DNA of 31,767 nt from Candidatus Kapaibacterium sp. (lineage in GTDB: Bacteria; Bacteroidota; Ignavibacteria; Palsa-1295): assembly GCA_046598695.1 (NCBI GenBank), contig JBKJHR010000118.1, positions 1-31,767 of the forward strand, in the 5' to 3' direction. The notes under the pieces are model-generated. The model worked only from the letters and a program-made list of their open reading frames with translations. It made no database searches and had not been told where the DNA came from. The translations under genes and the position numbers were made by a program. The first letter of the stretch is position 1. Each line of letters starts with the position of its first letter. Positions 5,019 to 13,796 of the stretch are shown in pieces.

Positions 5019-5624
5019 TTATCTGCTTATGAGTAAAAAGAAGCTCTCAACGATTGCCTTTGTCATTTGCTCAACTTCTTCATTCGGAATGATGATTCTC
5101 TTCTTGATGATGAGGGATGATACGCCATGGAGCATATTCCATACCATCATTGAAGCGAGTTCAGCATTCTTGATCTTGAGTGTGCCACTGTCAATGCATT
5201 CGGCAACGGTCTCCTTCAATTGTTGGTATGCCAATTTACCAATATCTTCGCAGTGTTCTTCAGCGATGACATTCATCGGTATTTCGATGATGAACATCAG
5301 GTCATAGAGCTTGGGGTTATCCATCGCCCATTTAACATAGGCTTTCGCGCGTTGATACAGGCGTTCATGGGGGTCGCTAATTCCAGAATATCTTGCCTGG
5401 TCAGCGACGAACAAACCGAAAGATAGGTTATAGAGCGCATAAAAGATCTCATCCTTATCTCTGAAATACAGATAGATCGTTGCCGGGCTGAACTCTATCT
5501 TCTCTGCAATGCTTCGGATCGTTACTTTCTCAAAACCTTCTTCAAGGTACAACTCCATCGCCGCATTCATAATGAGGCTCTTCATTGACTCCCTATCTCG
5601 TTCTTTTCTTTCTGATATTCCCAT
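5019..5624 (-). CDS. TetR/AcrR family regulator
   Basis: N-terminal HTH GFEKVTIRSIAEKIEFSPATIYLYF; C-terminal WNMLHGVSSL typical of the WHG-type ligand domain. Confidence 0.95.
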   Translation of the reverse strand: MGISERKERDRESMKSLIMNAAMELYLEEGFEKVTIRSIAEKIEFSPATIYLYFRDKDEIFYALYNLSFGLFVADQARYSGISDPHERLYQRAKAYVKWAMDNPKLYDLMFIIEIPMNVIAEEHCEDIGKLAYQQLKETVAECIDSGTLKIKNAELASMMVWNMLHGVSSLIIKKRIIIPNEEVEQMTKAIVESFFLLISR

Positions 5625-5682: not shown

Positions 5683-5712
5683 AAAAAAAGACCCTACAAA
5701 AGTAGGGTCTTT
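5683..5712 (-). terminator. Intrinsic terminator after the ECF sigma gene
   Basis: Minus strand aaagaccctac-tttt-gtagggtcttt followed by a T-run. Confidence 0.85.
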
Positions 5713-5738: not shown

Positions 5739-6401
5739 TTAATTCTTATGAATTCCGCCTGCCGCGCCAACGAGTCCCAATTCTTCCTCGTGACGGGTCT
5801 TGCGATGACGCTCTTCGTCAACGTTGTAGCCTCGGATGCGGGCATACTCGATGAGCTTGGAGCGCAGAAGCTTTCTGCCTCTGTGAAGTCTTGAACGGAC
5901 AGTCCCTATTGGGCAGTCCACGAACTCAGCGATCTCCTCGTACGTAAATCCTTCGATGTCGCAAAGAATAACGACGGTGCGGAAATCTTCGGGAAGAGAT
6001 TCCACAGCACGGGTCAGATCATCATCTAAAAGATTACGATAGAGACGCGCTTCCATATCGTTCGGGTCAGTGTATTCCGAACGGATGGTGTTGTAAAAAT
6101 TCTGAATGTCTTCGTAATCAACTTTATCCGGCTCTTTCGATTCCTTACGATAAATATTGATGTACGAGTTCTTCATGATACGGAATAACCACGCCTTGCA
6201 GTTCGTGCCTGGCTCGAACTTATCCCAAAAACGGTACGCCTTCATGTACGTCTCTTGGAGGAGATCATTCGCGTCGTCAGGGTCGCTCGTCATACGCAGA
6301 GCGAAGTTATACAGTGCAGTGACGTGCGGCATCGCTTCGCGTTCGAAGTCCTTATGCCGTGCACGAATCACCTTATCATCTAATTGTCCTACAGTATCCA
6401 T
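5739..6401 (-). CDS. ECF sigma-70 factor, SigR/SigH-like
   Basis: Region 2 DANDLLQETYMKAYRFWDKFEPGTNCKAWLFRIMKN; region 4 LPEDFRTVVILCDIEGFTYEEIAEFVDCPIGTVRSRLHRGR; tail YARIRG resembles actinobacterial SigR/SigH (from memory). Confidence 0.92.
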   Translation of the reverse strand: MDTVGQLDDKVIRARHKDFEREAMPHVTALYNFALRMTSDPDDANDLLQETYMKAYRFWDKFEPGTNCKAWLFRIMKNSYINIYRKESKEPDKVDYEDIQNFYNTIRSEYTDPNDMEARLYRNLLDDDLTRAVESLPEDFRTVVILCDIEGFTYEEIAEFVDCPIGTVRSRLHRGRKLLRSKLIEYARIRGYNVDEERHRKTRHEEELGLVGAAGGIHKN

Positions 6402-6844
6402 TGTGCTATGCCTTCTTTTTCTTCCTTAAGACCATTCGTAATCGTAGCCTACAAGAAATCATTTTCATATTGTGGGATTTTTTTCCATAAAGGGGGAGTT
6501 GTTATTATGCTCCCACCGAGAAGAACCCCTACCGTCATCTCTTCCAATCAAGAATAACAAATATACGACATTTTTCAGACCTATCCACAAAAAACGTTCC
6601 TAAACCACAGAGGATTTTATCAAAAATTGTGGATTTCTTGACTATTTCTTATTCGTAAAACCCGTCGCATAGTTTCGGAACCCACAGTTCCCGACTGATA
6701 ATTCTACTCTAATGACACCAAAAACCGACTTTTCGGGTCGCTTTCTTAGCGATTATGAATAAAAATTCACGTTTGGAAATAGAGAACTGGCTAGCACGGA
6801 GTGGCGTCTGGCTACTATAAGTTACCACAGGCTCATTCATGTCG

Positions 6845-6877: not shown

Positions 6878-9013
6878 ATGACTGTTAAGACGATTATCTT
6901 TCTGGGGGTGCTGGTGGCGGCGTTTGGTGGGGTTGCGTATAATGTACGCAAGCTCACGGATTTCCTGCGTGTCGGCAAATGGACGAACCGATTCGATAAC
7001 ATCCCTGAGCGCTTGCGCCGCACGTTCGTCATTGCCATCGGGCAATCGAAGATCATGCGCGATCCCGTCGCCGGTCCGATCCATGCCTTCATTTTCTGGG
7101 GCTTTATCGTTCTCCTGTTTGCCGTTATTGAGTCTATTGGTGAAGGGATCATCGGGCGATTCTCGCTGTCTTTCCTCGGCGGAGCATATTCCGTGATAAC
7201 GGTATCGCAAGATATCTTCATCGCACTTATCATCTTTTCGCTATTCGGCGCATGGTATCGCAGAGTTGTTTCGAAGGTCAAACGTCTGCAAGGTGATGCA
7301 CACGAGAAGAAGGATGCGATGATGGTGTTGGCAACAATAGCCGTGATCTGTATCGCACTTCTTTTTACGAACGCAACGCGTATAGCTGTTGGCGGTATCT
7401 ATCCGCATGAAGTACGTCCTCTCACAAGTGCTCTATCGGGTTTTTTCTGTAGCTGTGGCAAGACGGAAGTTTTGTTTGAAGTCTTCTGGTGGATACATAT
7501 CATTGCCGTTCTCGGCTTTATGAATTACTTGCCGTACTCGAAGCATTTGCACGTAATGACGAGTATCCCAAATGTATTCCTCTCCGATCTTCGTAAAAAG
7601 AATTATCTCAAGGCAATAAATTTTGAGGACGAGACGCTTACACAATATGGAGCGAAGGATATTGAAGATCTTTCATGGAAGCAGCTTTTTGATGGCGATA
7701 CATGTACGCATTGCGGAAGATGCTCGTCAGTCTGCCCTGCAAATTTAACGGGCAAATCACTTGATCCGAAATGGATCATCATCGCTACGCGCGAACGGAT
7801 GCTCGATAAGGCTCCGTATTTGATGGCAGATAATGCGTTCGGATTTCCTTCATGGGAAGATGCGATCGCCGGAAAAACACCCGACCCGCATTCCACTCAT
7901 AATCCATCACTCGAAACTCATCAGTCCCCAAACCCTGGGACGTTGCTCGGTACAAAACCTCGCATGAGCAAGGAAGAAGCTGAGGCGAAGACATTCATAG
8001 GTGATTATATCCCGAACGAAATGCTTTGGCAATGCACGACCTGCCAGGCATGTATTCAGGAATGTCCTGTAATGATCGAGCACGTTGACGAGATCGTTGA
8101 CTTGCGCCGTAATCTCGTGATGATGGAAGCGAACTTCCCACCGGAATTGCAATCAGCATTCAGCTCGATGGAGAATAACTATTCGCCGTGGGCATTCTCA
8201 CCAAGCGAACGTGCCGATTGGGCTGATGGTCTTGGCATTGAGACAATGGCAGAGTATTCAGCAAAAGTAAAACCTGAAGAGAAAGAAGATATGATCCTCT
8301 TCTGGGTTGGATGTGCCGGTTCATTCGATGCACGAGCAAAAAGTATTTCACGCGCCTTTGCAGAGCTGATGCAAATAGCAGGAAAGAATTTCAAGATACT
8401 CGGCACCGAAGAAAAATGCACTGGCGACCCTGCACGGAGAATGGGCAATGAATACTTGGCGCAGACGCTCATCAAAGAAAATGTCGAAACGCTTAATCGC
8501 TACAACGTGAAGAAGATCGTTACGACGTGTCCGCATTGCTTCAATGCGATCAAGAATGAATGGGGCGATTTCGGAGGAAATTACGACATCGTCCATCACA
8601 CCGAATACGTTGCCGAGCTTCTTGCCAAGGGTGATCTTGTCATTACCAAAGACCTTGAAGAGCGCGTGACGTATCACGATTCATGCTATCTCGGCAGATC
8701 GAATGATATTTACGATGCACCTCGCGCTGTGTTGGAAAATATCCCCGGCTTGGAGATCGTCGAGATGGATCGTAATAAATCCAAAGGACTTTGCTGCGGC
8801 GCAGGCGGCGGACAGATGTGGATGGAAGAAACCGAAGGCAAGCGCATCAACATCGAACGGACCGAAGAAGCATTAGCGACCGACGCAAAGACCATCGCCT
8901 CAGCCTGCCCCTTCTGCATGACAATGATGTCAGACGGCGTTAAAGCCAAAGAACAAGTAGACAACGTGCGAGTAAAAGACATCGCCGAGATTCTGTTGGA
9001 GGTGGTGAGGTAG
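6878..9013 (+). CDS. Membrane-bound Fe-S oxidoreductase (HdrD/GlpC/FadF-like): transmembrane domain, two 4Fe-4S motifs, CCG domains
   Basis: About 5-6 TM helices; [12 protein letters not shown]; [12 protein letters not shown]; CCG-domain motifs [35 protein letters not shown]. Confidence 0.93.
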
Positions 9014-9018
9014 GGATC

Positions 9019-9435
9019 ATGGCCAAATACGAAATCAAAACCAAGCTCAATGACGCTTCTGTCAAGGCGTTCTTGGATGCTTTGGAGGATGAGGTTAAGC
9101 GCGAGGATTGCTACGCTGTTTCGGAGATGATGCAGAAAGCAACGAAGGCGGAGCCGAAGATGTGGGGTTCTGCTATCGTTGGTTTTGGCTCGTATCATTA
9201 TCAAGGTAAAAGTAGCGAAGGTGAGTGGATGCTTATTGGTTTCTCTCCTCGTAAGGCGAACATCACACTCTATATTGGCTCAGCCTTTGAGGAGTATGAA
9301 ACACTTGCGCCGAAATTAGGTAAATACAAGGTCAGCGGCTCATGTTTACACATCAAGAAGCTCGCAGATGTTGACACGAAAGTTTTACAGCAAATGATAA
9401 AGGCCTCGGTCGCACACAGGAAGAAAAAGAAATGA
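9019..9435 (+). CDS. DUF1801 (YdhG-like) protein
   Basis: PKMWGSAIVGFGSYHY...GFSPRKANITLY...LGKYKVSGSCLHIKKLADVD pattern. Confidence 0.88.
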   Translation: MAKYEIKTKLNDASVKAFLDALEDEVKREDCYAVSEMMQKATKAEPKMWGSAIVGFGSYHYQGKSSEGEWMLIGFSPRKANITLYIGSAFEEYETLAPKLGKYKVSGSCLHIKKLADVDTKVLQQMIKASVAHRKKKK

Positions 9436-9956
9436 GTTCATATTATCAACATCGGCTTTCATCAGGCAATAACAATACTGTTATTGCCATCTCCGCCACT
9501 GAGTGCGGAAAGCTCTTTGCTGATGATACACGAAGCGATATTGGCTCCGAAGCAGAGAAGATGAAGTTTGCAAATGTTATTAATGACCTCGTCGCAAAGT
9601 TCATACGTTTGGATACTGACCCCAACTCCGGCTCAGAAATGATCGTTATGGAGCGTCTATATCCCCTTGACTATCGCGGACTCGAAGTAGAAAAGCGCGA
9701 ATTGCTGTATGAAGTCTTTGAAGATGAATTGATACAATTACACAAAGCAGGATTTGTACATCATGATATTAAACGCCCTTTAAGTGAACGCGGCGAACCT
9801 TATGATAATATCTTTCTCACGGAGAAAGGCGTCCGATTGATAGATGTTGGTATATCGGCATTGCGTTCGCAGGTTGGTGAGAAATTGTTTGCACGATATG
9901 TGGAAGAAGAGCTGAAAGAACTTGCGCAGTTCAAAATATATTTTCTTGAACGCTAA
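9432..9956 (+). CDS. Small protein-kinase-like protein (Bud32/RIO-like minimal fold)
   Basis: IVMERL hinge, LHKAGFVHHDIK catalytic loop, DNIFL, LIDVG; ATGA overlap with the DUF1801 gene. Confidence 0.8.
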   Translation: MSSYYQHRLSSGNNNTVIAISATECGKLFADDTRSDIGSEAEKMKFANVINDLVAKFIRLDTDPNSGSEMIVMERLYPLDYRGLEVEKRELLYEVFEDELIQLHKAGFVHHDIKRPLSERGEPYDNIFLTEKGVRLIDVGISALRSQVGEKLFARYVEEELKELAQFKIYFLER

Positions 9957-9963
9957 CAACCCT

Positions 9964-10638
9964 ATGAAACTTCGTCCTCTTTTTATCTTTGCTCTTCTTT
10001 TGACTTTATCATCTATCTCATATAGTGCTGATTCGATGCGCTATTATTTCGTATTCTTAAACCCCCCAGTTGAGCTTCTGAAAATAGATGATTCAACCTA
10101 CACCTATATCCAACAAAAGCATTTGCTTGATATGACTCGCTTTTTGCAATCGGGCTTTCTTGTTGCGGCTGGTCCTTTTGAGGGGGGTGGGGGGATGTTT
10201 ATTGTGAAGGCACATTCCGTGAAAGAAGTAAGTGATAGTATGCAAACAGATGAAGCTGTTGTTGCGGGGAGAAGTATTCCGGAGATCCTTCCGATGAATT
10301 TCTATAAAGGAAAACTCTGCGAAGGGGATGGAGAGGATATGCGTTCGTATGAAGCACTGCGGTTGAATAATGTTCGTTTCGGACAAAAAGATATCACCCT
10401 TGAACGTATCAATAGGGAAATAGATGGATGGATCGCCAATACTGAGAAGCAAGGGAAAGTACATTTTGTTTGTACGCTTGGCGATGGTGATATACCCGAA
10501 AGTGTGTTCATTGTTGCCGATGTAGCGGAAAAGCAACGCGTTGTAACCAAACGCTTTATGCCCAAAGAGCCTGGTGCTTTCATTCCTATTATGAAGAATT
10601 TTTATATTGCACATGGTACCTTCTGCGAAACGGAGTAA
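9964..10638 (+). CDS. Exported YciI-like domain protein
   Basis: Signal peptide from ATG 9964 (MKLRPLFIFALLL); QQKHL...LVAAGPF..GGGMFIV..S.....D.AV pattern of YciI. Start revised from the track's 9922. Confidence 0.6.
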   Translation: MKLRPLFIFALLLTLSSISYSADSMRYYFVFLNPPVELLKIDDSTYTYIQQKHLLDMTRFLQSGFLVAAGPFEGGGGMFIVKAHSVKEVSDSMQTDEAVVAGRSIPEILPMNFYKGKLCEGDGEDMRSYEALRLNNVRFGQKDITLERINREIDGWIANTEKQGKVHFVCTLGDGDIPESVFIVADVAEKQRVVTKRFMPKEPGAFIPIMKNFYIAHGTFCETE

Positions 10639-10654
10639 GTATTTTTCCGTTATA
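10627..10654 (+). promoter_or_regulatory. Candidate ECF-sigma promoter 1, before msrB copy 1 and the Kir channel
   Basis: GAAAC(10627-31)-N15-CCGTTATA(10647-54). Confidence 0.7.
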
Positions 10655-10680
10655 GGTATAGAGACTATTATAGAAGCAAT

Positions 10681-11064
10681 ATGAATTTTTCAAAAGAAGA
10701 ACTCCAAACACGCCTTACCCCAATTCAGTATGAGGTAACCCAAGAAAAAGGCACAGAACGTGCTTTTACGGGGGAGTATTGGGATCATCACGAGCATGGG
10801 ATGTATCATTGCATCGTCTGTGACACGCCCCTTTTTGCCTCAGAAACAAAGTTTGAATCCGGTTGTGGTTGGCCCAGTTTTTATCAACCGACAGAGGCTG
10901 TCGTTGTCAAAGAATCCTCCGATCATAAATTTGGAATGATGCGTACAGAAATAACATGTGCTACCTGTGACTCACATTTAGGTCATGTCTTTGAAGATGG
11001 ACCTGCACCGACTGGTTTGCGATATTGTATAAATTCAGCATCATTGATTTTTCATGGCAACTGA
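10681..11064 (+). CDS. msrB: Peptide-methionine (R)-S-oxide reductase, cytoplasmic
   Basis: [16 protein letters not shown] zinc pairs, [28 protein letters not shown]. Confidence 0.97.
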
Positions 11065-12058
11065 AACAAAGCAAACCTTAAAAGCTTGGAAGCGCGGCTT
11101 ACGTGTAAAGCTTACCCCTCATCCCGAACAAGCGGCAGAGCTTGGGTTTGGCTCACGTGCTGTTTCGAGAGGTGAGAGGTTAGTGAATTCCGACGGCACA
11201 CCGAATGTACGTCGCAAGGGTGATGCACGAACATTGTTTTCTGATGCATATCATACAACGATCTCGCTTACGTGGCCCAAGTTTTTTATTATTCTCTTAA
11301 GCACATTCATCGTCCTCAATATATTCTTCGGCATCGTCTATTATATAATAGGGACTGAGCATCTTTCGGGGGTGATCGGTGAAACGTCGATGGAAAAATT
11401 CTCTGAAGCTTTCTTCTTTAGCTCGCAAACGCTAACGACACTTGGCTATGGGCGCATTAGTCCTGTGGGTTTTTTATCAAGTTCTGTTGCTGCCATTGAA
11501 TCCACTCTTGGTTTATTGGCATTTGCGCTTTCGACGAGCCTTCTTTGGGGTAGATTTTCTCGTCCAACAGCGAAGTTGCTTTATTCCGATCGTGCTCTCA
11601 TCGCTCCATTCCATGACGGAAAAGCATTGATGGTACGCCTTGTCAATGGCAGACGCAATCATCTTATCGAGATCGAAGCGAGAATGGTTGCTGCTCGAAA
11701 TGAAGTCATTGATGGGACAAAGGTCAGAAAATTTTACAACCTTCCACTTGAGCTTGACAAAGTAAACTTCCTTGCGCTGAGTTGGACACTTGTTCATCCC
11801 ATTGACGATGCGAGTGTATTTTTGGATATGACGCAAGATCAGATTCAGCAAGCAGATTACGAAATCCTTGTGATGATGAAAGCATACGATGAGATGTACT
11901 CCCAAATGATCTATTCTCGTACATCGTATAAAGCCGATCAAGTTATCTTCGGTGCGAAGTTCATCTCCATGATGAGCAATGAGAATATCGGAGGTACGGT
12001 GCTTGATCTACGCAAGCTCCACTCATTCGAGGTAACAGAGTTTGCGGAGAAACTCTAA
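11054..12058 (+). CDS. Inward-rectifier (KirBac-like) potassium channel
   Basis: Two TM helices around filter TLTTLGYG; cytoplasmic domain [13 protein letters not shown] and RTSY; overlaps the msrB stop by 11 nt. Confidence 0.92.
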
Positions 12059-12076
12059 AGAGATACATCCGTTATA
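12049..12076 (+). promoter_or_regulatory. Candidate ECF-sigma promoter 2, before msrB copy 2
   Basis: GAAAC(12049-53)-N15-CCGTTATA(12069-76). Confidence 0.7.
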
Positions 12077-12118
12077 CAAAAATCTGCGTATTAGAAATAG
12101 AACGTTTACTTGCATAAT

Positions 12119-12607
12119 ATGAATACCAAAGTACAAACACTACTCCTTATCCTTGCTCTTTTCGTTACGTCATCATGTACACAGGCGAAGACGGAAAGCA
12201 CCGAGCAAAAAGCAAAAAGCTTCCGCGTCCAAAAGACTGCCGCTGAATGGCGCAAGCAATTATCACCCGAAGCATACGAAGTAACCCGTGAGAAGGGCAC
12301 AGAACGTGCATTCACGGGTAAGTATTGGGATAACCACGAAGAGGGAAAATACTATTGTGCATGTTGTGATTGGCTTCTCTTTGATTCGAAAACGAAGTTT
12401 GAATCAGGCACTGGCTGGCCTAGTTTTTATCAACCGTCTTCCAAATCGCAAGTTATAGAAATTACCGATAAGACACTCGGCATGTCACGCACTGAGGTCG
12501 AATGCTCCAATTGTGGCGCACATTTGGGACACGTTTTCGATGATGGTCCTAAACCGACAGGCTTGAGGTACTGCATTAATTCAGTTGCGATCAACTTCAA
12601 GAAGTAA
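12119..12607 (+). CDS. msrB: Peptide-methionine (R)-S-oxide reductase, exported or lipoprotein form
   Basis: Signal/lipobox-like [11 protein letters not shown]; [40 protein letters not shown] 12119 preferred over TTG 12110. Confidence 0.95.
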
Positions 12608-12623
12608 AAAAGCATTTTTTGAC

Positions 12624-12650
12624 GAAACTATGAAGGGGAAATACCGTTAT
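12624..12650 (+). promoter_or_regulatory. Candidate ECF-sigma promoter 3, before the M42 peptidase
   Basis: GAAAC(12624-28)-N15-CCGTTAT(12644-50). Confidence 0.7.
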
Positions 12651-12658
12651 TTCCCCTT
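12633..12658 (+). terminator. Hairpin after msrB copy 2, overlapping candidate promoter 3
   Basis: aaggggaaata-ccgt-tatttcccctt. Confidence 0.6.
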
Positions 12659-12673
12659 TACTATTTTAAACTC

Positions 12674-13747
12674 ATGACACAGACCCAAGAGCAATTTCTA
12701 CAAAAGCTGATCGAAACACCGGGCGTATCAAATTACGAAGAGAACGTCCAGCAACTCTTCCGTGATGAGGTGAAGAACTCCGTTGATTCCATCGAAGTAA
12801 CTCCGCATGGTAATAACATTGCGACCATTAAAGGTAGTGAAGATATTTCCGTCCTTATCGTTGGTCACGCTGACGAGATCGGACTTATCATTCGTTATAT
12901 AAGTAGTGAAGGGTTTATTTATGTCTCACGCGTCGGTGGAGTTGATCCTGCGATCCTTCCATCGCATCGTGTTCGTATTTTCTCATCGAAGACGGGTAGC
13001 GTGGTAACTGGAGTTGTTGGGCGCACCGCACCGCATCAAATGCGTGGCGAAGATGGAGGTCCCAAAAAGATCACTTACTCAGACATTTGGATCGATATTG
13101 GTGCGAAAGATAAAGAAGACGCAGAGAAATATGTTGCCATTGGCGATGTCGCTATTTATGGAGAAGGTTATGAACGCCTCATAGATACGAAGGCAACAGC
13201 GCGTTGCTTCGATAATCGTATTGGTGTATATATTGTAGCTGAAGTATTAAAGAATATTGCGGCACGCAAAAGTGAATTGAAAGCGACCGTGTATGGAGTG
13301 AGCTCTGCACAAGAAGAAACAGGTGTATGGGGTGCGGGACAAGCGGGGTATCATGTGAACCCGACGCTTGCTATTGCACTTGATGTTACTCCGTCGACAG
13401 ACTCTCCCGGTATCTCCAAAGAACTCTGGGGACAAGTTGATGTATCGAAGGGTGCAGTTATCTCTCGCGGTATTCGTAATAATCGTAAGATCAGCGACAT
13501 GATGACGAAGGTTGCTGTTGAGAAAAATATCCCTCATCAAATAGAAGTAGATAATGGTCACACATCAACCGATGCAGACCCCATCAGTCAACAACGTTCA
13601 GGCATTCCTATAAATGTACTTAGCCCTGCAACACGCTATCTGCATTCATCAGTAGAAGTACTTGACCTTAATGATATTGATAACTGCGTAAATCTCCTAA
13701 CGGAGTTCATTTTGCAATTGAAAGGTGGAATGGATTTTCGGCAGTAA
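12674..13747 (+). CDS. M42 family (TET-like) metallopeptidase
   Basis: GHADEIG, CFDNRIG, QEETG, IALDVT, RYLHSSVE metal-ligand motifs. Confidence 0.94.
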   Translation: MTQTQEQFLQKLIETPGVSNYEENVQQLFRDEVKNSVDSIEVTPHGNNIATIKGSEDISVLIVGHADEIGLIIRYISSEGFIYVSRVGGVDPAILPSHRVRIFSSKTGSVVTGVVGRTAPHQMRGEDGGPKKITYSDIWIDIGAKDKEDAEKYVAIGDVAIYGEGYERLIDTKATARCFDNRIGVYIVAEVLKNIAARKSELKATVYGVSSAQEETGVWGAGQAGYHVNPTLAIALDVTPSTDSPGISKELWGQVDVSKGAVISRGIRNNRKISDMMTKVAVEKNIPHQIEVDNGHTSTDADPISQQRSGIPINVLSPATRYLHSSVEVLDLNDIDNCVNLLTEFILQLKGGMDFRQ

Positions 13748-13769: not shown

Positions 13770-13796
13770 AAAGCCCGCTTGATACAAGCGGGCTTT
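13770..13796. terminator. Bidirectional intrinsic terminator between convergent genes
   Basis: aaagcccgcttg-ata-caagcgggcttt with T-rich flank. Confidence 0.85.

Follow-up and report, generated by a model that had tools for sequence, protein, structure and literature searches.

A two-box motif of the ECF promoter type before msrB, K+ channel and M42 peptidase genes of a Kapabacteria genome, with a SigH-like sigma factor as candidate reader

Among the described extracytoplasmic function (ECF) sigma factors, SigW of Bacillus subtilis has the consensus TGAAAC-N16-CGTA, and RpoE (sigma-E) of the Proteobacteria uses a -35 box of the GGAAC/GAAAC type; sigma-E of Neisseria reportedly controls msrAB. 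The SigH/SigR group (ECF12) of the Actinobacteria, with SigH of Mycobacterium tuberculosis and Corynebacterium glutamicum and SigR of Streptomyces coelicolor, directs regulons of thiol-oxidative and heat stress. The consensus of M. tuberculosis SigH is GGAAYR-N17-GTT, and msrB belongs to the SigH regulon (PMC4803200). In the structure of the SigH open complex, the bases G-11 T-10 T-9 are read by F72, T76, N77, W81, I85, N88, I91 and N92 (Li et al. 2019, PMC6411747). ECF203 is an uncharacterised group with no anti-sigma factor, a conserved TetR neighbour and no conserved autoregulatory motif (PMC7826278, Casas-Pastor et al. 2021). Here we analysed a contig of Candidatus Kapaibacterium sp. (JBKJHR010000118.1 of assembly GCA_046598695.1; 31,767 nucleotides (nt), hereafter the window), in which the two-box motif GAAAC-N15-CCGTTAT stands before genes for two methionine sulfoxide reductases, a K+ channel and an M42 peptidase, and which also encodes an ECF sigma factor similar to SigH.

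Almost all that is known of Kapabacteria comes from metagenome-assembled genomes, and we are aware of no experiments on how they regulate transcription. A first-pass annotation of the window had proposed an ECF oxidative-stress regulon. We read the boxes as promoters of an ECF stress regulon with the neighbouring sigma factor as the leading candidate reader, and assign to this reading, taken together, a probability of roughly 0.7. The type of regulon is itself already known; this one is of an ordinary kind and does not change the understanding of ECF sigma factor function.

Three two-box sites and the spacing of the motif

A pattern scan returned exactly three copies of GAAAC-N15-CCGTTAT in the window, all on the plus strand, with the boxes and spacing that the first-pass annotation had described as identical. 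The genes behind them were identified with Pfam and NCBIfam (two SelR/MsrB genes, one gene with IRK_C and Ion_trans_2, and one Peptidase_M42 gene). Sites, genes and hairpins are as follows.

10627..10653, plus strand: site 1, GAAAC-N16-CGTTAT box before msrB1-Kir; predicted transcription start about 10660
10681..11064, plus strand: msrB1, cytoplasmic peptide-methionine (R)-S-oxide reductase (SelR 3e-54; TIGR00357 198 bits)
11054..12058, plus strand: Kir-type K+ channel gene (IRK_C, Ion_trans_2 and IRK domains)
12049..12075, plus strand: site 2, GAAAC-N16-CGTTAT box before msrB2; predicted transcription start about 12082
12119..12607, plus strand: msrB2, exported MsrB with a lipoprotein-type signal (SelR 4e-52, residues 51-165)
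12624..12650, plus strand: site 3, GAAACT-N15-CGTTAT box before the M42 peptidase gene; predicted transcription start about 12657
12631..12660, plus strand: terminator-like hairpin 3' of msrB2 (13-pair stem, then a T-rich tail)
12674..13747, plus strand: M42-family aminopeptidase (Peptidase_M42 3e-75)
13770..13796, plus strand: strong terminator-like hairpin closing the M42 transcription unit (12-pair stem with 7 GC pairs)

The previously given distances from site end to start codon were confirmed, with 27 nt for msrB1 (ATG 10681), 43 nt for msrB2 (ATG 12119) and 23 nt for the M42 gene (ATG 12674). The -35 box of site 1 overlapped the final codons of the preceding gene (stop 10636-10638), and that of site 2 the 3' end of the Kir gene. 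Since the Kir gene and msrB1 share an 11-nt overlap, the two are probably co-transcribed. The reading frame of msrB2 was open from an in-frame TTG at 12110, and its N-terminal signal and Cys were kept in orthologues. CCGTTAT alone occurred seven times in the window, compared with 3.1 expected; the copies outside the three sites, at 7122, 15824 and 23510 on the plus strand (noted as unpaired before, which held) and at 7196 on the minus strand, all lacked a GAAAC partner.

Since msrB1 and msrB2 are paralogous, the threefold match might be ascribed to a duplicated segment, or else to chance. None of 100 dinucleotide-preserving shuffles of the window contained the motif. The spacers and flanks of the three sites were unrelated and only the boxes were common to them, which shows that the sites did not arise by duplication of a single segment. 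With the enrichment specific to spacing and promoter position described below, chance and duplication are effectively refuted.

The draft genome (G000, with the window as contig C4) comprises 2,051,420 bases in 279 contigs and is 74.6% complete. Its only exact copies of GAAAC-N15-CCGTTAT were the three in the window, and the two boxes occurred at each of the other spacings from N12 to N19 with 0-1 copies. The relaxed core GAAAC-N16-CGTTA was found nine times, compared with a mean of 2.8 at the spacings from 8 to 25 other than 16. Six of these nine copies were intergenic with the start of an open reading frame (ORF) at most 60 nt downstream, compared with 4/48 at the other spacings (Fisher p = 4e-4) and with a background fraction of 2% for such positions. 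With a looser -10 box (CGWWW), promoter-position matches numbered 12 at N16, 9 at N17 and 0-2 at each other spacing. The first-pass expectation of a genome-wide enrichment before genes was thus borne out in this genome by the relaxed core, the exact form being confined to the window.

When six relatives from the same family were scanned motif first, they and this genome together yielded 29 promoter-position sites in seven genomes. Their distance to the start codon was 3-66 nt (median 31), and the motif was always oriented toward the gene. The motif is asymmetric and consists of two short boxes with a free spacer sequence, of which only 16-17 nt are tolerated. An operator for a DNA-binding regulator, either the TetR-type regulator whose gene adjoins the sigma gene or one of the Fur or MarR type, has in its favour this adjacency and the Fur-family gene and MarR gene that lie behind motif-like sites. 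TetR and Fur operators are typically palindromic, in contrast to these asymmetric, strictly spaced and always gene-directed boxes close to the start codon, and we regard an operator as very improbable. Stringent spacing, a free spacer sequence, a fixed orientation and a median distance of 31 nt together mark ECF promoters rather than a palindromic operator. The sites share with ECF promoters an AAC-type -35 box and a CGT/GTT-type -10 box at a stringent spacer length, and the position just upstream of, and orientation toward, the downstream gene. As judged from these features, the three boxes are very probably promoters for ECF (group 4) sigma factors, with GAAAC as the -35 box, a 16-nt spacer and CGTTA(T) as the -10 box. 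Such promoters would allow separate stress-inducible transcription of msrB1-Kir, the exported msrB2 and the M42 gene within a tightly packed co-directional row of genes.

Motif-headed genes and conservation in related genomes

Orthologous loci were collected gene first, that is, from the genes and not from the motif. GAAACT-N15-CGTTA was found 20-30 nt before the ATG of M42 orthologues in 7 of 17 loci from three genera (g1, g5 and g2), the window included. The six loci besides the window belonged to genera g5 and g2; spacers and upstream genes varied among the motif-bearing loci, and the hairpin of the window was absent in the six others. This site is the only one of the three that is conserved in this form.

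The hairpin at 12631-12660, which was absent from the first-pass annotation, had a dG of -16.7 kcal/mol (z = -3.1) and overlapped both the spacer and the -10 box of site 3. Site 3 might consequently be the msrB2 terminator only, with a coincidental match to the motif and two related boxes instead of three: CCGTTAT there makes up the loop and descending arm of a stable hairpin, whose 13-bp stem precedes a T-rich tail. The M42 orthologues rule this out as the whole account, because six other loci keep the motif at the same ATG distance with no hairpin and behind unrelated upstream genes; we consider it very improbable. As a promoter, site 3 would be nested in the terminator of msrB2. The hairpin would form in transcripts that read through from msrB2, and those starting at about 12657 would carry its 3' arm only and could escape termination.

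In the draft genome, three further exact cores in promoter position preceded genes for a secreted thioredoxin-like protein, a secreted VWA protein and a DUF4412 lipoprotein, and a fourth lay 187 nt 5' of an HtrA protease gene, within a long ORF. One-base variants were found before a second HtrA gene and the genes for a secreted AhpC/TSA protein and the RseP protease. Variants that matched less well, or that turned up only once, preceded genes for a Fur-family regulator, Lgt, TypA/BipA and a heavy-metal ATPase. Across the scanned genomes, the genes recurring behind the core encoded an M16 peptidase (4 genomes), DUF4412 proteins (5), HtrA (3-4) and thioredoxin-like proteins (2), further an HlyD-type fusion protein (2 genomes), AhpC/TSA and M42. 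Motif-headed stress genes were found across five genera of the family, and most fetched matches were intergenic. In a genome of another family (G028), 0/7 core matches were in promoter position; six lay in long ORFs and one had no close ORF start.

The boxes would accordingly form a promoter class that spans this family of Kapabacteria and stands before genes that serve to repair or remove damaged proteins, most of them exported (HtrA, M16, DUF4412, thioredoxin-like, AhpC/TSA, HlyD-type and M42). The regulon looks like one for repair or removal of damaged, mostly exported proteins by proteolysis, methionine-sulfoxide repair and thiol-redox reactions. Its scope looks wider than oxidative stress, with exported proteases and lipoproteins (HtrA, M16, DUF4412) predominating alongside thiol-redox proteins. 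The first-pass proposal is thus retained as to ECF-type boxes of a regulon and widened as to content, toward protein damage in the envelope as well as redox damage. Exported MsrB, secreted thioredoxin-like protein and HtrA/M16 proteases may jointly counter damage to envelope proteins. A promoter class recognisable from sequence offers a way to a first regulon map for Kapabacteria.

Several observations weigh against promoters and a conserved regulon. Site 3 sits within a terminator hairpin. The boxes before msrB1 orthologues were variant, with GAAAC-N17-CGTA in the nearest genus (g5) and GTAAC-N16-CGTA in g2, and were absent in a third genus. Before msrB2 orthologues, a site of the GAAAC-N16-CGTTAT type was not found; these genes stand behind a divergent gene and have other boxes, AAATC/GAATC-N16-18-(T/C)GTA. 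The conservation that the first-pass annotation anticipated therefore extends to the M42 site in g5 and g2 and to neither msrB site in the form found here. The three identical boxes appear to be partly peculiar to this genome, in which msrB2 and the M42 gene have been brought directly behind Kir. In the relatives, total core counts did not exceed those of a reversed-pattern control, and the signal there lies solely in position, spacing and the recurrence of genes. The sequencing runs that contained this sequence were DNA metagenomes only (soil, rhizosphere and sediment), one of which (run X1) contained 96% of the sampled words, and promoter activity is here deduced from the motif and its setting.

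The adjacency of msrB1 and Kir was kept in genera g1, g2, g5 and g6 (loci L185-L198), where the two genes often overlapped. This looks like a conserved operon that ties methionine-sulfoxide repair to a K+ channel. Neither of the two genes 5' of msrB1 (9432-10638) had a Pfam match. By eye, the 174-aa protein has a kinase-like motif of the HxDxKxxN type and the 238-aa secreted protein a YciI-like look; the gene order DUF1801 / YciI-like / msrB1 / Kir was kept in genus g5. Both were considered as anti-sigma factors, for which no support was found. Just 3' of site 2, at 12076-12096, AAAATCTGCGTATTA resembles the boxes before msrB2 orthologues in relatives and may be a remnant promoter, or a second one (ACATC-N17-CGTATTA). 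In a complete relative (G001, C7:1650733-1653069), a sigma-70-family gene (open frame of 411 aa) is divergent from the adjoining M42 gene, whose box is degenerate (GAATC-N16-CGTTG).

The SigH-like sigma factor as candidate reader

The boxes may be read by the ECF sigma factor encoded at 5739-6401 on the minus strand. The features of its locus are as follows.

5739..6401, minus strand: SigH/SigR-like ECF sigma factor, candidate reader of the three boxes (Sigma70_r2 and r4_2 domains)
5019..5624, minus strand: TetR-family regulator 3' of the sigma gene, where an anti-sigma gene would be expected (TetR_N and TetR_C_33)
6558..6565, minus strand: TATATTTG, which matches the '-7' box TAnnTTTG, between the CGAATA box and the sigma gene; conserved across orthologues
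6650..6676, minus strand: GAAACT-N15-CGAATA box about 250 nt 5' of the sigma gene; -35 box and spacing as in the three sites, -10 box different

The best match in the Protein Data Bank was M. tuberculosis SigH (5zx2_F, 1e-48, approximately 50% identity over 183 residues), with 169 bits compared with 103 for the next match and 72 for SigW. Against the model TIGR02947 (SigH_actino), the protein scored 196.9 bits, below the cut-off of 251.55, and the next model scored 128 bits. In an alignment with SigH, the equivalents of all the residues listed above as reading G-11 T-10 T-9, from F72 to N92, were identical. The -35 readers S182 and R186 were conserved as well; the residues of the SigH G-5 pocket were not kept. 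Among the 14 ECF paralogues of this genome and the 29 of the complete relative G001, the GTT-reading signature was unique to this sigma factor and its orthologue. The match of these residues makes a small test case, across phyla, for predicting from sigma-2 residues which promoters an ECF sigma factor recognises.

The first-pass remark that the spacing is closer to the SigW type does not discriminate. The geometry GAAAC-N16-C-GTT is identical to GGAAYR-N17-GTT and places GTT at the SigH distance from the -35 box. Like SigW promoters, the sites have GAAAC as their -35 box, 16 nt between the boxes and a -10 box beginning with CGT; they differ in their -10 box, which is CGTT(A) and not CGTA, and in having no conserved T before GAAAC, and they do not belong to the SigW type. 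The content of the regulon resembled that of RpoE in its HtrA/DegP-type proteases, in exported repair including Msr and, weakly, in RseP. Unlike RpoE promoters, the sites do not have GTC in the -10 box, and no motif-bearing autoregulated operon of the rpoE-rseA type was found in G000 or G001. With SigH/SigR the system shares the GTT-reading residues, the placement of cGTT and, among its genes, msrB, thioredoxin-like proteins and proteases; unlike those regulons, its targets are mostly exported proteins. Overall, this resembles an ECF stress regulon, with a sigma factor and -10 box like those of SigH/SigR, a -35 box and spacer that also fit SigW, and a content like that of sigma-E.

The neighbouring sigma factor is the best candidate reader of the three boxes, and on its residues we lean, somewhat beyond even odds, toward that assignment, which gives a concrete sigma-promoter pair that is testable in a heterologous host. 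The first-pass annotation had already named it as the obvious, though unproven, candidate. The SigH-type GTT-reading residues, unique among the paralogues, support that choice; its proximity does so weakly, given that at least 14 ECF sigma genes are present in the genome. Its own upstream box lacks GTT.

The following points tell against the assignment. The -35 box is GAAAC and not the GGAAY of SigH/SigR, and the base at the position of SigH G-34 is not conserved. SigH M181, which determines specificity at -31/-30, is replaced by Arg (R169). In a domain search of the window, no anti-sigma gene adjoined the sigma gene; the TetR gene takes the place of the RsrA/RshA-type anti-sigma gene of SigH/SigR. 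The conserved box 5' of the sigma gene is CGAATA (CATATA in G001) and contains no GTT, unlike in SigH/SigR. Other ECF paralogues, such as the sigma factor on contig C99, also use a GAAAC -35 box, and the assembly reaches only about 75% completeness.

The chief alternative is that another ECF sigma factor recognises the boxes, be it any of the 13 or more further paralogues or one that the incomplete assembly lacks, with the neighbour unrelated or upstream in a cascade. The number of ECF genes (at least 14 here, about 29 in the complete (100%) relative) leaves many candidates, and the GAAAC -35 box is common to several classes that differ only in the -10 box (CGTT, TGTCAT and N17-CGTAA). The neighbour's conserved upstream box is of the CGAATA and not of the CGTT form, and the form GTAAC-N16-CGTA of msrB1 in genus g2 is also found directly 5' of other ECF genes in G001. 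However, GAAAC-N16-CGTT was absent upstream of 15 sigma-family genes of G000 and about 29 of G001, no ECF gene of either genome carries it upstream, the SigH-type GTT-reading residues are present in the neighbouring sigma factor only, and the C99 sigma factor is already accounted for by the TGTCAT class. A different reader is thus rather unlikely, and we retain the neighbouring sigma factor as candidate.

Among the features of ECF12 that were tested, three were not found in this sigma factor: a score above the model cut-off, an adjacent ZAS anti-sigma factor and an autoregulatory GGAAT-N18-GTT promoter. We therefore call it SigH-like and do not assign it to ECF12. The pair of sigma and TetR genes, also found in loci L020 and L024 and in relative G004, is similar to ECF203, a likeness by that group's description only. 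Unlike in ECF203, the TetR neighbour is present in some Kapabacteria loci only, and distant orthologues (Ignavibacteria, Chlorobi) have a zf-HC2 anti-sigma gene immediately downstream, whose product is of the membrane type and 280-320 aa long where checked. In this genome, zf-HC2 gave two matches, both weak, below the cut-off and directly 3' of other sigma genes. In relative G004, the sigma gene directly follows msrB2 (order msrB1-Kir-x-msrB2-sigma-TetR). Among 80 orthologous loci, synteny of sigma and msrB was seen in G004 only, and most loci had no msrB within 3 kb; as support for the assignment, this synteny is weak at best.

Possible control of the sigma gene and further ECF promoter classes

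A GAAAC(T)-N16-CGAATA box was present 220-460 nt 5' of the sigma gene in 21 of 22 orthologous Kapabacteria loci. TATATTTG, which lies between this box and the gene, we take to be a Bacteroidota primary-sigma box, going by the Bacteroidetes promoter consensus. The -10 box may be what separates ECF paralogues. If it is, the CGAATA box would either belong to another sigma factor, in a cascade, or serve the sigma factor itself as a weak site.

The sigma gene was 60-97% identical across Kapabacteria, Ignavibacteria, Chlorobi and Balneolales. Loci L042-L099, from Ignavibacteria, Chlorobi-related lineages and Balneolales, were 62-78% identical, which is unusually conserved for an ECF sigma factor. 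Kapabacteria might have re-wired an ancient sigma factor of the SigH/SigR type: the adjacent anti-sigma gene would have been lost, transcriptional control would have come from the primary-sigma and CGAATA ECF-type promoters and possibly from TetR, and the regulon would have moved from cytoplasmic thiol stress to damage of exported proteins, including Kir with msrB. We offer this as a speculative scenario that is probably not correct in full; if true, it would imply either a cascade of sigma factors or feedback that is weak by design.

The long leader of the sigma gene (6402-6650, minus strand) was conserved across Kapabacteria, with the blocks 'ataataaca' and 'aaatccc'. It gave no match in a search of Rfam and may be an element of post-transcriptional control. 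Between the sigma gene and the TetR gene, a hairpin lies at about 5685-5712.

A second promoter class, GAAAC-N16-TGTCAT, was observed in the draft genome, with 6 of 17 TGTC matches in promoter position (contigs C11, C49, C99, C108, C130 and C166). The ECF sigma gene on C99 (346-798, minus strand) has a box of this class 12 nt upstream and a weak zf-HC2 (ZAS-like) match downstream, and this sigma/anti-sigma pair is probably autoregulated, with a regulon of its own. Its product shares the T-N specificity loop with the SigH-like sigma factor and was considered as a reader of the CGTT class; it was rejected on its own promoter, GAAAC-N16-TGTCAT, which belongs to a separate class of at least six sites. 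Genome-wide, GTAAC-N16-CGWWW was enriched in promoter position (12/39). GAAAC-N17-CGTAA(G/T) is a further subclass, and several ECF promoter classes thus share the AAC -35 box. On contig C149, GGAAC-N17-CGTAAT (about 10157-10185) was considered as the box of an autoregulated ECF sigma gene and rejected, the gene being of the primary (RpoD-like) type by its N-terminal sequence. The box lies 63 nt before this RpoD-like gene, and expression of a primary-like sigma factor may here be driven by an ECF sigma factor.

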